The notes: a model not told the origin generated them from the sequence alone. Numbered from the stretch's first letter, positions 3,352-15,116 are shown. The stretch is DNA of 42,587 nucleotides from a virus (IMGVR_UViG_3300045988_039819:1-42587), one strand, 5' to 3'. A program made the numbers and translations.

Positions 3352-4566
3352 TCAGGAAACGGTCACGGTGGCAGTGCCGGTCTTACTGCTGTCCTGCTTG
3401 GACTTGGCAGTTACGGTGATGCTGGTGGAAGTCTCGTTGGAGGCCACAGTCAGAACGCCATCCTCGGAAATGGAGGACTTAGCGCCATTCTGGCTCCACT
3501 CAACGTTCTCGCTCACGATGCCATCACCGGCCACAACGGCGGAAAACGCCTTCTTGTCGCCCTTTGCCATAGTTGCGGTAGCGGGAGAAACGGTCACAGT
3601 GGACACGGTGCCCGCCTTGCCATAAACGGAGAAGGGGAAGGGGTTGGTAATGTCGGCGTTGTAAGCGTTGATGGGGTTGGCGATCTCCCAGCCCAGACGC
3701 ATGACGGCACGGAGAGCTACCATGTCGTTCTGCATCAGGTTGTAGGTGATGGCCTTGGTGCTGGGATCCTGGATAACGCCCTCGGTGAAAATCTTGAAGG
3801 TCATATCCTGCCGGATAGCGTAGACCAGCTGGCTCCAGTCGCCAACGATCATCTGAGCCTGGGTGGGGTCAAAGGCGCCATTCATGGGGAAATACATGTC
3901 CATGCCATCAAGGCCGTAGCGGGTGGCGCCCTGCATATCGGACTTAAAGATGGGCTGGCCGGTGGTATCCTTTAGGCCACGCAGCTTGCCACGCATCTGG
4001 ATGGCGGACATGACGCCGTTGGGATTGAAGCCGTCCAGCTCAACCTTGGCGATCAGGCCGTTTTCGCCCATAATGTCGTCAAACACGCTGGTGCCGACGG
4101 GAACGCCGTTACCGGCAGCGATGGCAGCGGGCACAACGCCGGTGCGCCAAGTGCTGGGCTTGTTGGTGCCGAACAGGATAGCGGCGTCGATGACCTTACC
4201 GAAAGCCTCGGTCAAGCGGGGCTTGACCTCTCCCCAGATGTCGTAGTCGGCATCGTCCAGAGCGGCCTCGGGAATGGGCACGATGACGGCGATTTCCTCG
4301 GCGTACAGTTTCTTCTTGTCCCACGCCATCTTCGTGGTCTGCTTGAAAGCCTCGCCAGCGCCGCTGTCGGTAGCCTCGCCGTTCACGAAGTACGCGGAGG
4401 GCAGGGCGTCCAGCACGTTGATGGTCTGGGTCTTGCTGGACATATTCGCCAGTCTACGGCCCATGCGCAGGACGGCAGATTCGGCGATAGCGCCCTGCAT
4501 GATTTCGCGGGTTACGGGTTCCGGGATAAGGCCGGAAAGTGCGTTTCTGTCGATAATATTTGCCAT
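3352..4566 (-). CDS. Major capsid protein (HK97-fold family) with a C-terminal Ig-like (Big_2-type) domain
   Basis: 404 aa, following a scaffold gene. The C-terminal roughly 85 aa (VSPATATMAKGDKKAFSAVV...TVTAKSKQDSSKTGTATVTVS) looks like a bacterial Ig-like decoration domain. Confidence 0.85.
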   Translation of the reverse strand: MANIIDRNALSGLIPEPVTREIMQGAIAESAVLRMGRRLANMSSKTQTINVLDALPSAYFVNGEATDSGAGEAFKQTTKMAWDKKKLYAEEIAVIVPIPEAALDDADYDIWGEVKPRLTEAFGKVIDAAILFGTNKPSTWRTGVVPAAIAAGNGVPVGTSVFDDIMGENGLIAKVELDGFNPNGVMSAIQMRGKLRGLKDTTGQPIFKSDMQGATRYGLDGMDMYFPMNGAFDPTQAQMIVGDWSQLVYAIRQDMTFKIFTEGVIQDPSTKAITYNLMQNDMVALRAVMRLGWEIANPINAYNADITNPFPFSVYGKAGTVSTVTVSPATATMAKGDKKAFSAVVAGDGIVSENVEWSQNGAKSSISEDGVLTVASNETSTSITVTAKSKQDSSKTGTATVTVS

Positions 4567-5357: not shown

Positions 5358-6526
5358 TATTGCACCTTCGTCCTTTCCCACTGCTCAGGCAGCCCTGCAG
5401 CCTCGCTGAACGCCTTGTATTTCGTGTCCAATCGCCTTAGGCGTGTATTTAATGCCATCGCATCTCCCGTCAATCCTGCGGCCCTATAAGCGGCTTTTTC
5501 GCGCTTTAGCTTGCGGATTGTCCGCTCTACGCGCCGTTGCATCTGCGTTGCCTCGTATGCCGTGTATGTCTTGCCCTCGAAGGTGCATCCGAGGCCATCG
5601 TCGATATGCTCAAGCTGCTCATCGGTGTAAGTGCGTTCTGACACACCCTCAACCCAGACGCTGCGCTTATGGCGGCAGTTTGCGCCCTCAAGCCCATCGA
5701 CCGCGCCAAGCCCGCATACCTCGTAGATATTCTGGTAAATATCCCCGCTACGAACTGAATACACACGGCCTTGCCACGCCTTGTGAGATGACCATGGTGA
5801 CTGCCCCGGCTTATCGCGTGCGCCCGCATGAGCGGAAACCTCGAAATATGGCGTTTCCAGCCATTCGGCGGACTGCTCCGTATACTTTGCGCAAATTTGA
5901 TTTACCGCCGTCATAACTGCGCGGCGGGCGGCTACGTCGATCTGGTCACGGTGTCCGCTCTCATAATCTACGACTTTCAACCCGCTTTGCGCCAACTGAC
6001 GCACCGCCGATTTGATAGCCTGATTGTAGCTGATAGCGCCGCTCTGGATTTGCATTGTGGCATTGTCTAAAGCCCATTGATACGCTTTGGCAGGTGGAAG
6101 CATCGTCCGCCCAGCGTCCACCAGAAACCCCATAGAGCGCGTAAGGTTGCGCATGGTCTGCTTCGTCTGCTCGTATATTGCCCATGTGTCCTCGACGCTC
6201 ACCAGCGTTTCGGGCTGTGTGATATGCGCAAGGTCAATCAATTCGGTGTAATACTTCTGGTTGCGCTCCACAACATCGTCAAGCAGCTCATTCAACTTCG
6301 TTTCACTGATGCCGGAAGTTTTGCGGATCGCTTTCTCAATCTCTTTTAGGTCGATGCCGTGCGACCGCAGCGCCTTGATGTCCTGGACCGTGACCTCGTT
6401 CAGCTCGTCCCGCAGCTTAAGCCGGGAGCATATCTCCGTCAGCAGCGTGTCCTCAAGTCCACGGTACAGTTCTGCCAGTTCTTCCGGCAGCGCATCAAGG
6501 ATTTCCGGCTGAAACGGATATTTCAT
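5354..6526 (-). CDS. Minor capsid / head morphogenesis protein (MuF / SPP1 gp7 / Phage_min_cap2-like)
   Basis: 390 aa in the position expected after the portal. The C-terminal motif is SSHKAWQGRVYSV...GANCRHKRSVWVEGVSE, followed by a coiled-coil tail. Confidence 0.75.
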   Translation of the reverse strand: MKYPFQPEILDALPEELAELYRGLEDTLLTEICSRLKLRDELNEVTVQDIKALRSHGIDLKEIEKAIRKTSGISETKLNELLDDVVERNQKYYTELIDLAHITQPETLVSVEDTWAIYEQTKQTMRNLTRSMGFLVDAGRTMLPPAKAYQWALDNATMQIQSGAISYNQAIKSAVRQLAQSGLKVVDYESGHRDQIDVAARRAVMTAVNQICAKYTEQSAEWLETPYFEVSAHAGARDKPGQSPWSSHKAWQGRVYSVRSGDIYQNIYEVCGLGAVDGLEGANCRHKRSVWVEGVSERTYTDEQLEHIDDGLGCTFEGKTYTAYEATQMQRRVERTIRKLKREKAAYRAAGLTGDAMALNTRLRRLDTKYKAFSEAAGLPEQWERTKVQY

Positions 6527-7142
6527 TTGCTTTCCTCCGTTTCACAATTTCATCGTAATGCGGCTTCACGCGGATCACATTCCAGTCGCATTCCTCCGGT
6601 ACTTTTCCGTAGAATATCACCCATTCCGGTGAAAGACGTTTCATCATTTCTTCGTAACCGCGCAGGAAGAGCCGCTTGCTTTCCTTGTTCTGCTGTGTGC
6701 CTACCGAGCTAACTGCAACTATCCCTCCGACAGGCTCGCCATCAAAGCACCAATCGTAACTATCCTCGTCGCTCCATGAGATTGAGGGATAGACCGTCAT
6801 GCCGTGCATTTGCCAGTATGCCGCCAGCCAGTGCTTGCGATAGTGGTTGTATATCTGCATCGCCAACGGCATATCCGTGTATGTGGAGAAGTCCGGCGCG
6901 CACACCGCCGCAAACTGCGACAGTTGCGGAATGTACTTGTCAGGCGTGTTCCAATATCGAATGAATTGGTAATCGTCCACGAAGAAATGCACAATCTTGC
7001 TTTTCGTGTCTTTCGCGGTGTAATGGTAATTCACGGGGATAAACTCACCTTGTGGGTATGCCTTGACCGGCTCGATCTGCGGAATGTCGTACTTTCCAAC
7101 GCCGGGGAATGTGAACTTGTTGAGATTTTCAAAGTTAATCAT
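6495..7142 (-). CDS. DUF4417-like protein
   Basis: The start is at MINFENL (ATG 7142). The signature KIVHFFVDDYQFIRYWNTP...APDFSTYTDMP...N matches my memory of DUF4417. The function is unknown. Confidence 0.55.
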   Translation of the reverse strand: MINFENLNKFTFPGVGKYDIPQIEPVKAYPQGEFIPVNYHYTAKDTKSKIVHFFVDDYQFIRYWNTPDKYIPQLSQFAAVCAPDFSTYTDMPLAMQIYNHYRKHWLAAYWQMHGMTVYPSISWSDEDSYDWCFDGEPVGGIVAVSSVGTQQNKESKRLFLRGYEEMMKRLSPEWVIFYGKVPEECDWNVIRVKPHYDEIVKRRKANEISVSAGNP

Positions 7143-7151
7143 AAATCCCCC

Positions 7152-7196
7152 AGCAAACAAAAATGCCGCAAGATACATTTCTGTACCTTACGGCAT
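7152..7196 (-). terminator. Intrinsic terminator inside the head module
   Basis: On the minus strand ATGCCGTAAG-14 nt-CTTGCGGCAT forms a 10-bp stem with one mismatch. It is followed by TTTTTGTTTG and lies between ORF 7256..7648 and the DUF4417-like gene. Confidence 0.55.
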
Positions 7197-7255
7197 AGCA
7201 AGCGCCCGGAATCAAACCGGAACTTCCTCAATCAAAGTGTGCTGCCATTACACCA

Positions 7256-7648
7256 CTACTTGCTACGCCGATTATACCATATTTTTTTGACCCGCTCAAC
7301 CATTTTCTTTTCTTCGGTTGTCAGGTTTGCATACTTTTTCGCGCTGTCGTTCTCGCTGTGGATATATCCGTGATGGGTATGTGGGGAAACTTTATCGTGC
7401 GGCCTGTCCAAGTCTATCTGCTTTGTCCTTTTATTTGCCGCATCGTAATATGTAATTGCCTTGATATTGTCGTTTTTGTTTAGCGTCACATAAACGCGCC
7501 CTTTGGTCATTGTTTCCATAGGCGTTTTCTGCGCGCCGTCAACCGCCTTGACAAACTTGATATTGCTTTCCTTGACGAGTGTTTTAAACTCGCTCCCGTA
7601 AGTCTTGCCGCTTACGCTGATACCGCTGCTTGCGCCGCGTCCACCCAT
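7256..7648 (-). CDS. Hypothetical protein starting with MGGRG and carrying the His-cluster PHTHHGYIH
   Basis: The start is at MGGRGASSG. The ATG at 7648 overlaps the upstream TAA as TAATGGGTGG. The protein is 130 aa and beta-rich, and the gene has lower GC than its surroundings. Confidence 0.6.
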   Translation of the reverse strand: MGGRGASSGISVSGKTYGSEFKTLVKESNIKFVKAVDGAQKTPMETMTKGRVYVTLNKNDNIKAITYYDAANKRTKQIDLDRPHDKVSPHTHHGYIHSENDSAKKYANLTTEEKKMVERVKKIWYNRRSK

Positions 7649-8187
7649 TAAACAGGTCTCCATGTACCGCTGCGCTTGTTAGCCCTGCGGTATTTCTTTC
7701 CGTTTACCGTAACTTCTAACGCGCCGGACTTTTGCGCTGTTACAAAGGCATTGGAAAACGCCTTGTTTTCTGCTGCTTTGCGGTTTTTACTGGACTGGTC
7801 ACGCAATTTCCGCATGTAGCTATCCATTTCACCGCGCGCTCTTGCAGCTCTGTCTGCGGCGCTTCCTGTTTTCTGCGCCGTTGTCAGGCGTGCAGGCCCA
7901 CTTGCATAAGGATTGACTGCTCCTGCCGCCGTTTTGAGCGCCGTTGTTGCGAGAGTTGCCATCTGCTTTACGGCGTCTTTCTTTTCAGCGTCCGACAGCG
8001 CAAGCCCATTGATTTCAGCAGCGTTGCGCTCAAATGTGCGCCTGATAATATCGCCCATATCAGTGACAGACGCAGCGTTTGCTCGGTTAATATCCTGCTG
8101 TGACAAAAACCGCGCAAGGCTCATACCGCGCCCACGCCCAAATTCTCCAGCTCCAATGCCGCCACCAGCTCCGCCTCTGCCGCCCAT
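7648..8187 (-). CDS. Hypothetical protein starting with MGGRG (Gly-rich N-terminus, basic helical remainder)
   Basis: The start is at MGGRGGAGGG. The ATG at 8187 overlaps the portal TAA as TAATGGGCGG, with AGGAGG upstream. The protein is 179 aa. Confidence 0.6.
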   Translation of the reverse strand: MGGRGGAGGGIGAGEFGRGRGMSLARFLSQQDINRANAASVTDMGDIIRRTFERNAAEINGLALSDAEKKDAVKQMATLATTALKTAAGAVNPYASGPARLTTAQKTGSAADRAARARGEMDSYMRKLRDQSSKNRKAAENKAFSNAFVTAQKSGALEVTVNGKKYRRANKRSGTWRPV

Positions 8188-14832: not shown

Positions 14833-15116
14833 GCTCCCACAGCGGCGAGAGAGGATGCCGCCTCATCCGTGCAGGCCAAAACCTGGATCGCGCCCGTGAC
14901 CACCATTTCGGAAACCATCACCGTAAATTTGCAGCTCTTGGGAGAGGACGTGCCGTCAACCGCCAGCTGCTCCACAGCGCACGCACCGTCCCAGTACCAC
15001 AGCTTGCGCACGTTGGTCATAGTGACTTCGTCGCCGTTGCGTTCCTTGATCTGCCCGAAGAAAACGCCAGCCTGTGCGCACCGCACAACGTACATCTGAT
15101 TGTTTTTCGCTTCCAT
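14820..15116 (-). CDS. Hypothetical phage protein
   Basis: 98 aa (VVRCAQAGVFFGQIKERNGDEVTMTNVRKLWYWDGA). It recalls a recurrent phage family of unknown function. Confidence 0.6.
   Translation of the reverse strand: MEAKNNQMYVVRCAQAGVFFGQIKERNGDEVTMTNVRKLWYWDGACAVEQLAVDGTSSPKSCKFTVMVSEMVVTGAIQVLACTDEAASSLAAVGAWKR

Follow-up and report, generated by a model that had tools for sequence, protein, structure and literature searches.

Results

A mobile DUF4417 module between the portal and MuF genes

The segment between the portal and MuF-type minor capsid genes in IMGVR_UViG_3300045988_039819:1-42587, a viral stretch of 42,587 nucleotides (nt) referred to here as the window (region under study, 5,358-8,187), is one copy of a mobile phage module. 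It combines a gene of the DUF4417 family with genes for basic proteins that share an N-terminal leader beginning with MGGRG. Two such proteins are encoded in the window by open reading frames (ORFs) A and B, and ORF B is followed by a tRNA-like small RNA gene of the F41/SpF41 type (Table 1). A preliminary description of this DNA had placed three extra genes between the portal and the MuF-type gene, which is borne out by the gene order and by comparison with phage A25. As the A25 portal gene abuts its minor head protein gene directly, ORF A, ORF B and the DUF4417 gene are additional genes here. That the module and its linkages are real is practically certain.

About 280 loci were compared, sampled in three ways: by ORF B, by leader DNA and by DUF4417. 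The DUF4417-based sample contained one genome per species, with Oscillospiraceae, Lachnospiraceae, Ruminococcus and others as hosts. When loci are sampled by ORF B, DUF4417 adjoins ORF B in all 83 except L023, which ends just past ORF B. Sampling by leader DNA gave 118 matches, about 106 of which open ORFs of at least 85 amino acids (aa); DUF4417 is present in the stored flank of 93 of 109 loci and ORF B in only 26. The commonest layout in this sample is portal > ORF A > DUF4417 > MuF, without ORF B. In the DUF4417 sample the 107 leader matches are all on the same strand as DUF4417, with none on the other, and 106 mark the start of an ORF of 60 aa or more. The nearest leader gene is at most 120 nt from DUF4417 in 63 of the 80 loci and at most 1.5 kb away in 70. 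One to four leader genes occur per locus, co-directional with DUF4417.

The location of the module varies. In most phages it lies upstream of terS, far from MuF. One layout, DUF4417 > ORF B > RNA > TerS, is found in Streptococcus phages, DO134P1, Jekyll and many others, and a second, with the module between portal and MuF, in the lineage of the window. In sister phages the slot behind the portal is either empty or filled from a set of at least eight unrelated MGGRG-starting proteins. By comparison of these sequences, the leader tracks DUF4417, not MuF or the portal. A link between the leader and DUF4417 is not described in the literature that we found.

The leader follows the consensus M-G-G-R-G-[GAS]-[SAG]-[GS]-G. 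Both ORFs of the window had been noted to begin with MGGRG at overlapping TAATG junctions, and this was confirmed at 8189-8185, where the TAA of the portal gene overlaps the ATG of ORF A, and at 7650-7646. The leader DNA pattern is seen twice in the window versus 0.14 expected, and 2 of 100 shuffled sequences reach this count; taken alone, the count within the window is modest evidence against chance. Across the families the conservation of the leader is overwhelming. Its Gly and Arg codons vary freely among loci, and the constraint therefore acts on the peptide and not on the nucleotides, which rules out a nucleotide-level signal. A secretion signal was also ruled out, as the leader has no hydrophobic stretch. 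In the AlphaFold2 (AF2) model of ORF B the leader is disordered. Our literature search on MGGRG found no relevant paper.

ORF A, ORF B and the other cargo families

Among the 86 homologous clusters of ORF A, G2 and R4 are invariant, G3 and G5 are present in at least 90% of the sequences and core motifs are conserved. Searches of Pfam, PHROG, PADLOC, NCBIfam and PDB sequences returned no match, and tblastn against cultured phages gave one unannotated faecal contig only. The gene is optional among sister phages. Based on its sequence we classify ORF A as a leader-tagged cargo protein of an unannotated family.

ORF B is covered over residues 1-130 by the phrog_9479 profile (positions 1-133 of 136). 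This is its only match, searches of Pfam, PADLOC, NCBIfam and PDB sequences being empty. At 90% identity the family forms more than 1650 clusters, at 50% it forms 460; nearly all are about 130 aa long and start at residue 1. Invariant or nearly invariant positions are M1, G3, R4, G5, H84, P89-H-T-H-H93, Y95, H97 and E99, and the histidine cluster PHTHHGYIH, to which the preliminary description had drawn attention, is invariant throughout the family. The AF2 model (predicted local distance difference test, pLDDT, of 72) contains a small beta sheet and a C-terminal helix besides the disordered leader, and a Foldseek search of the PDB with this model gave nothing with E below 0.4.

Several loci show ORF B in altered form. 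In phage A25 the homologue is gp23 (L001 6001-6411; L and P numbers denote loci and database proteins, respectively), for which GenBank gives the start MSDKGD. The gp23 gene is annotated too short; its true start is the conserved MGGRGASSG, 27 nt further upstream, where the reading frame overlaps the 3' end of DUF4417. Locus L084 (2888-4528; also L085) has the order DUF4417 > ORF A-type body with the ORF B-type leader MGGRGASSG > METMT-start ORF B > RNA > TerS, and its ORF B is without the leader and the first 43 residues. The METMT start is also found in many database relatives of ORF B. Taken together, the L084 layout and the METMT starts suggest cassette exchange at or near the leader. ParB_N is joined directly to the ORF B core in the database proteins P0215 and P0258 and at L072 (4402-5454); these fusions are probably deletion products of ParB_N-DUF4417 plus ORF B. 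The reverse case, with the leader joined to the C-terminus of DUF4417, is seen in P0206 and L115.

The proteins are about 80-300 aa long and, once the leader is taken away, group into about 49 families that are unrelated to one another. The isoelectric point (pI) is above 9 in 44 of the 49 families (median 9.9), and 22 families have a polybasic C-terminal tail; portal, major capsid protein, MuF and DUF4417 are acidic, unlike the cargo. Most cargo families have no Pfam match. Three of the ten families that were scanned with Pfam pass the threshold for effector or toxin folds. ADPrib_exo_Tox (PF03496) is matched by two families (4e-32 and 3e-9; a third match is weak), the papain-fold toxin Gln_amidase (PF15644) by one (1e-16) and DUF6883 by one. 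Three families carry a JAB-like HxHx7SxxD motif, identified by eye and accompanied by a weak RadC hint (E 0.059). The closest cultured-phage relatives of the ADP-ribosyltransferase (ART) cargo are MuF-ART fusion proteins. A 268-aa protein encoded just after the RNA at L045 (6554-7360), L063 (6561-7370) and L078 (6555-7358) carries an internal GGRGSGSG at residue 76, between an unknown N-terminal domain of 75 aa and a JAB-like HNHPx7SxxD domain, and is the sole case seen of a non-N-terminal leader.

A tRNA-like small RNA paired with ORF B

The small RNA gene overlaps the last three codons of ORF B. Its transcript matches the full-length Rfam model RF02435 (positions 1-105) with 42 bits (E 1e-5), which is below the gathering score of 52 for SpF41, and reaches 25 bits with the Rfam tRNA model RF00005, for which the threshold is 29. 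The folding energy compared to shuffled sequences corresponds to z = -5.8. Copies in A25, Dorea phage DO134P1 and Roseburia phage Jekyll score 99.6, 71.8 and 53.5 bits, respectively, all above the Rfam threshold, and all are located at the 3' end of the ORF B homologue, the same position as in the window. The intrinsic terminator reported earlier at this site is present as a hairpin with a U-tract (7196-7163), but it belongs to the tRNA-like RNA gene (7266-7153), which had been overlooked.

The RNA is preceded by a promoter (TTGAGC, 17 nt, extended -10 TGgTATAAT) located within the ORF B codons for ...MVERV...IWYN. The same -35 element, spacing and extended -10 are found in most distinct loci, 6-8 nt ahead of the RNA 5' end. 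We built a covariance model from seven RNA copies; it gives 80.5 bits for the window copy, which is part of the training set. Searching 966 kb from 84 sources with this model detects the RNA in 80 of them, always at the 3' end of ORF B. It lies within about 90 nt of the ORF B stop in all but two cases, which are about 260 nt downstream. In the alignment 91% of the cells are paired compared to about 45% in slid controls, and compensatory changes on both sides are observed for 24 of 27 pairs. In the resulting architecture the acceptor stem is followed by a D region without pairing, a short hairpin in the centre (loop of 4 nt), a T arm and the terminator.

The RNA is tRNA-like but not a tRNA. A true tRNA-Gln was rejected, because the score is below the tRNA threshold and the covariation favours a 4-nt loop, not a 7-nt anticodon loop. 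ARAGORN finds no tRNA with default settings, while relaxed settings yield a poor fold resembling tRNA-Gln(UUG), the anticodon stem of which is mismatched. In the leader-DNA sample the RNA is present only where ORF B is present (17 of 100 loci). RNA and ORF B form a fixed pair, the RNA being found only with ORF B. Two tandem RNA copies follow ORF B at L035 (6387-6570) and L036 (4160-4343) and also at L047, L052, L061, L003 and L042.

F41 (srn277) of Streptococcus pneumoniae TIGR4 is an expressed RNA of 103 nt (PMC3395615, PMC12323649, PMC7196914). It is present in 4 of 385 pneumococcal strains (PMC12323649) and is expressed from a strain-specific region during normal growth; its deletion lowers virulence, and its loss affects fitness in mice (PMC3395615, PMC12323649). 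F41 pulls down RNase Z and the exonuclease Cbf1, and Cbf1 trims it (PMC3395615, PMC7196914), as expected for a tRNA-like RNA with a terminator.

The DUF4417 protein

The gene described earlier as DUF4417-like is confirmed as PF14386, with 198 bits versus a cut-off of 28.9 over profile positions 4-179 of 183. It also matches the C-terminal half of phrog_940 (ParB-DUF4417, 'nuclease'). Fusions of ParB_N to DUF4417 are found at L049, at L072 and in phrog_940; the window protein stands alone, without ParB_N. Its true start, set by the homologues, is the ATG at 7142 (MINFENL...), which follows GGGGGA and lies 3' of the terminator. A start at 7178 was rejected as too long, since the homologues begin with MINFENL. 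The polar residues H52, D57, R62, D84, S86, R102 and Q111 are invariant. In a survey of phages and prophages DUF4417 ranks with the most frequent fusion partners of ParB_N (bioRxiv 10.1101/2025.10.10.680097). In the literature naming DUF4417 or PF14386 we found no function tested or assigned.

When the AF2 model of DUF4417 (pLDDT 68) is compared with BFVD by Foldseek, the top matches outside the family are phage queuine tRNA-ribosyltransferases (E 2e-4, probability 1.0, TM 0.49). Five more such models are among the top 32 matches, with E ranging from 2e-4 to 2e-2. The same model matches only weak TIM barrels in the PDB, and phmmer against PDB sequences found nothing. In PADLOC the protein reaches E 0.022 only, above the 0.01 level. 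The model would be compatible with a fold like that of tRNA-guanine transglycosylase (TGT), an assignment that we regard as tentative and somewhat below even probability.

Head-module layout and other features of the window

All genes of the portal-MuF region are read from the minus strand (Table 1). The window has the order expected of an SPP1-like head module, i.e. TerS, TerL, portal (SPP1 Gp6-like), MuF/gp7-like protein, scaffold and major capsid protein, the last two located downstream of MuF, and the module of three genes and an RNA is the sole interruption of this order. The 3' end of DUF4417 overlaps the MuF start by 32 nt. The PF06152 domain spans residues 6-373 of the 390 residues of the window MuF, which has no C-terminal effector domain. 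An insertion of lower GC content had been proposed. This is correct for ORF B (0.466), the small RNA (0.465) and DUF4417 (0.494), compared to a window mean of 0.564, but not for ORF A (0.543), which exceeds the portal gene (0.517). Family searches with the 57-aa ORF between TerL and portal gave no match.

Table 1. Features of the head module and of the DUF4417 module in the window.
Feature	Coordinates	Strand	Evidence or remark
TerS	11389-11018	-	head-module order
TerL	11025-9784	-	head-module order
57-aa ORF between TerL and portal	9614-9787	-	GC about 0.44; start and stop codons overlap neighbours
Portal (context)	8187-9617	-	PF05133 7e-17; phrog_533 3e-115
ORF A, 179 aa, pI 11.0, leader MGGRGGAGGG	7648-8187	-	86 homologous clusters
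MGGRG leader codons of ORF A	8173-8187	-	sequence reading
ORF B, 130 aa, pI 9.9, leader MGGRGASSG	7256-7648	-	phrog_9479 5e-51
MGGRG leader codons of ORF B	7634-7648	-	sequence reading
Sigma-70-type promoter of small RNA	7271-7299	-	TTGAGC, 17 nt, TGgTATAAT
tRNA-like small RNA gene, Rfam SpF41/F41 type	7153-7266	-	RF02435 42 bits; fold; covariation
Intrinsic terminator hairpin of small RNA	7163-7196	-	U-tract 7162-7153; helix 4 of covariation model
DUF4417 gene, 215 aa, pI 6.1	6495-7142	-	PF14386 1e-58
MuF/minor capsid protein 2 (context), 390 aa	5354-6526	-	PF06152 8e-85, residues 6-373

Further features were observed on the minus strand. Two adjacent tRNA genes (12091-12238; Rfam tRNA 48.7 and 36.7 bits) are located upstream of the terS region; ARAGORN calls the second only, as tRNA-?(Leu|Leu), and its anticodon loop is abnormal in being one base too short. 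A 247-aa ORF (14089-14832) lies under a GC spike of 0.66-0.69 (14401-15000), and its N-terminal half is a low-complexity (G-S-G-D-G-Y)n repeat followed by a globular C-terminal domain. The major capsid protein (3352-4566) has a C-terminal extension of about 100 aa that is Ig-like in look, with a weak I-set match of E 0.03 only.

Discussion

In the explanation that we favour, and to which as a whole we assign an even chance, the module carries its leader as a tag that is handled by DUF4417. The leader would serve as a common address or processing tag for diverse cargo, and DUF4417, which is enzyme-like and possibly a distant TGT/DpdA-type barrel, would recognise or modify it. Many cargoes, including a particle of ORF B and its RNA, could thus be handled alike through the leader. 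That the leader is a functional tag tied to DUF4417 is probable in our view. The favoured destination would be the phage DNA and capsid, from which the cargo would enter the next host with the genome. We favour delivery because the cargo is basic, some of it has toxin-type domains, the module is coupled to portal and MuF here and DUF4417 occurs in fusions with ParB_N. Delivery of the cargo in the virion, taken by itself, is a possibility that we would place distinctly below even.

Several points weigh against this explanation. Both the contact between DUF4417 and the leader and the presence of cargo in virions are things that we infer, and adjacent co-directional genes can share a leader without its being recognised by the neighbour's product. 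Ten of the 80 DUF4417 loci have no exact MGGRG gene within 1.5 kb; two of these are truncated contigs, and three have an ORF B whose start is not M-G-G-R-G. Many of the IMG/VR loci come from one large data set and hence are not independent. The DUF4417 model is of medium quality, its fold matches in the PDB are weak, and hhalign of the DUF4417 profile with DpdA of phage 9g is not significant (probability 0.1%). In A25-type phages the module ends an operon upstream of terS and is closed by the RNA terminator, a placement that could mean early or middle rather than late expression. With regard to delivery, F41 is expressed in a growing lysogen-like strain (PMC3395615, PMC12323649).

The last two observations speak for an alternative in which the cargo is not packaged but acts in the producing cell, in host take-over, anti-defence or superinfection exclusion, and DUF4417 modifies or regulates it via the N-terminus, e.g. 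by activating or capping. This alternative accounts for the same linkage to DUF4417, the invariant polar residues of DUF4417 are as expected of an enzyme, and the expression of F41 in TIGR4 together with its fitness effect in mice (PMC3395615, PMC12323649) suggests a function in the lysogen or cell. ART or deamidase cargo, however, would need immunity proteins, of which none was identified, though no search for immunity genes was made. The basicity, the polybasic tails and the coupling to portal and MuF in the window lineage also fit proteins associated with DNA or the capsid better. We consider action in the producing cell unlikely.

DUF4417 might also be a stand-alone modifier of nucleic acids, e.g. 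a DpdA/TGT-like enzyme that protects phage DNA. The MGGRG proteins would then be co-located nucleic-acid binders with an RGG-like leader that DUF4417 does not recognise. The queuine tRNA-ribosyltransferases and TIM barrels among the fold matches point in this direction, as do the basic cargo, the tRNA-like RNA close by and the fusion of phage ParB_N to DNA methyltransferases or DUF4417 (bioRxiv 10.1101/2025.10.10.680097). However, about 49 unrelated families, always beside DUF4417, would not all have a plain RGG motif fixed at residues 2-5. There are no 7-deazaguanine synthesis genes among the window ORFs read, and the comparison with the 9g DpdA argues in the same sense. This makes a stand-alone modifier improbable.

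The preliminary description had suggested that ORF A and ORF B are unfused versions of MuF-type effectors and that GGRG is what remains of a linker or processing motif after fission of MuF-effector fusions. The location of the genes between portal and MuF, the ART cargo with MuF-fused relatives in cultured phages and the internal GGRGSGSG that follows a 75-aa domain in the L045-type protein are in line with such an origin. The idea of unfused, delivered effectors is plausible in spirit and indirectly supported, in that the cargo domains overlap with those known from MuF toxins and polyvalent proteins and the ART relatives are indeed fused to MuF. ORF A and ORF B themselves have no effector match. 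In the Pfam scan neither of them matches any LPD, PBECR or toxin family; Ntox24 appears at E 0.049, below threshold. Both are single, small, stand-alone proteins, whereas MuF polymorphic toxins are defined by a C-terminal toxin fused to MuF, with a cognate immunity gene downstream, and polyvalent proteins by at least two effector domains in a single chain, with domains of the LPD/PBECR or a similar kind.

The relic itself finds no counterpart in the data. The 150 best of the 460 ORF B clusters are stand-alone proteins or, in the longer forms, ParB_N fusions, and no MuF fusion, with or without GGRG, is among them. Among ORFs of at least 150 aa in 84 sequences no MuF protein contains GGRG; internal GGRG in long ORFs is restricted to a TerL, two unrelated ORFs and the 268-aa L045-type protein. 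The junctions of the MuF-ART fusions Javan308 gp37 and Cicada gp5 have no GGRG, and linkers are not discussed in the paper on MuF toxins (PMC5576092). Moreover, the module is mostly found upstream of terS, far from MuF, and the leader follows DUF4417. A fission origin of ORF A and ORF B is therefore very improbable.

More speculative still is a covalent version of the tag, for which we see little prospect. DUF4417 would here be a TGT/DpdA-like enzyme that uses a protein side chain instead of a free base as nucleophile and joins Arg4 or the Gly2 amino terminus of the leader to a nucleotide C1' in phage DNA, an N-glycosidic link akin to arginine ADP-ribosylation. ParB_N would place the enzyme on DNA, terminase would package the tethered cargo and the cargo would be injected; in the case of ORF B the leader would be joined to the tRNA-like RNA.

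Least probable of all is a prophage toxin-antidote or abortive-infection defence in which DUF4417 neutralises leader-tagged toxins until a trigger: although toxin-type cargo domains exist, one conserved partner accompanies many variable proteins and the module is present in prophages of many Clostridia, PADLOC is empty for ORF A and ORF B and gives DUF4417 an insignificant value only, most cargo looks non-enzymatic (small, basic, helical or disordered), ORF B is paired with an RNA and is not a toxin fold, and the virulent phage A25 also has the module, inside or at the head of its morphogenesis operon.

Should the leader prove to be a DUF4417-dependent tag, the unannotated small genes beside DUF4417, which number in the thousands in phages of gut Clostridia and Streptococcus, would become one class of interchangeable effectors that are delivered or co-processed. 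DUF4417, previously without a proposed function, would gain a first testable role, and the pneumococcal 'virulence sRNA' (small RNA) F41 would become the RNA half of a phage protein-RNA pair. A short portable tag that loads proteins onto phage DNA or into capsids might also be of use as an engineering tool.

The concept of polymorphic phage effectors that have a trafficking element in common is not new; for the leader itself we found no description in the literature. The internal proteins of phage T4 (IPI, IPII, IPIII and Alt) are small, basic and polymorphic and have an N-terminal capsid-targeting leader of about 10 residues. This leader suffices to bring any cargo into the prohead, and the internal proteins are injected with the DNA. 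The cargo described here likewise consists of polymorphic basic proteins with a shared N-terminal leader, encoded with head genes. The leader sequence is unrelated to that of T4, the constant partner is DUF4417 and the genes are often upstream of terS. As to a prohead protease, a T4-type feature, the proteins between portal and major capsid protein gave no protease family match in Pfam and PHROG. Packaging of the cargo in the manner of T4 would be an analogy.

A second parallel is offered by MuF toxins (Jamet et al. 2017, PMC5576092) and polyvalent proteins (Iyer et al. 2017, PMC5512222). These likewise comprise variable ART, papain-fold, JAB/RadC and ParB-like domains, occur in temperate Firmicutes phages beside portal and MuF and are believed to accompany the DNA. 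The ART cargo, with its MuF-fused relatives, recalls the MuF toxins directly. In contrast to MuF toxins, the proteins of the module are separate and small and have an N-terminal MGGRG instead of being C-terminal domains of MuF.

With respect to DUF4417, the model weakly resembles models of phage queuine tRNA-ribosyltransferases, which belong with the DpdA/TGT base-exchange enzymes (Hutinet et al. 2019, PMC6884629; Cui et al. 2023, PMC10516641), and the subfamilies DpdA3 and DpdA4 (DUF6610) were found in the same way (PMC6884629, PMC10516641). DUF4417 is far shorter (about 200 aa) and is not among DpdA1-4, and deazaguanine synthesis genes are not seen among the window ORFs read. The ParB_N survey (bioRxiv 10.1101/2025.10.10.680097) assigns DUF4417 no function, and neither the leader-tagged neighbours nor the RNA appear in it.

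The small RNA is of the same family as F41/SpF41 (Mann et al. 2012, PMC3395615; Hoer et al. 2020, PMC7196914), with which it shares the tRNA-like body and the terminator. The papers on F41 (PMC3395615, PMC12323649, PMC7196914) do not tie it to a phage protein, and neither its phage origin nor a protein partner is described in the literature that we found. In that literature F41 is a rare, virulence-linked pneumococcal small RNA, whereas here it is a phage RNA that is spread across phages of Clostridia, and the phrog_9479 gene, to whose 3' end it is always fused, contains its promoter.

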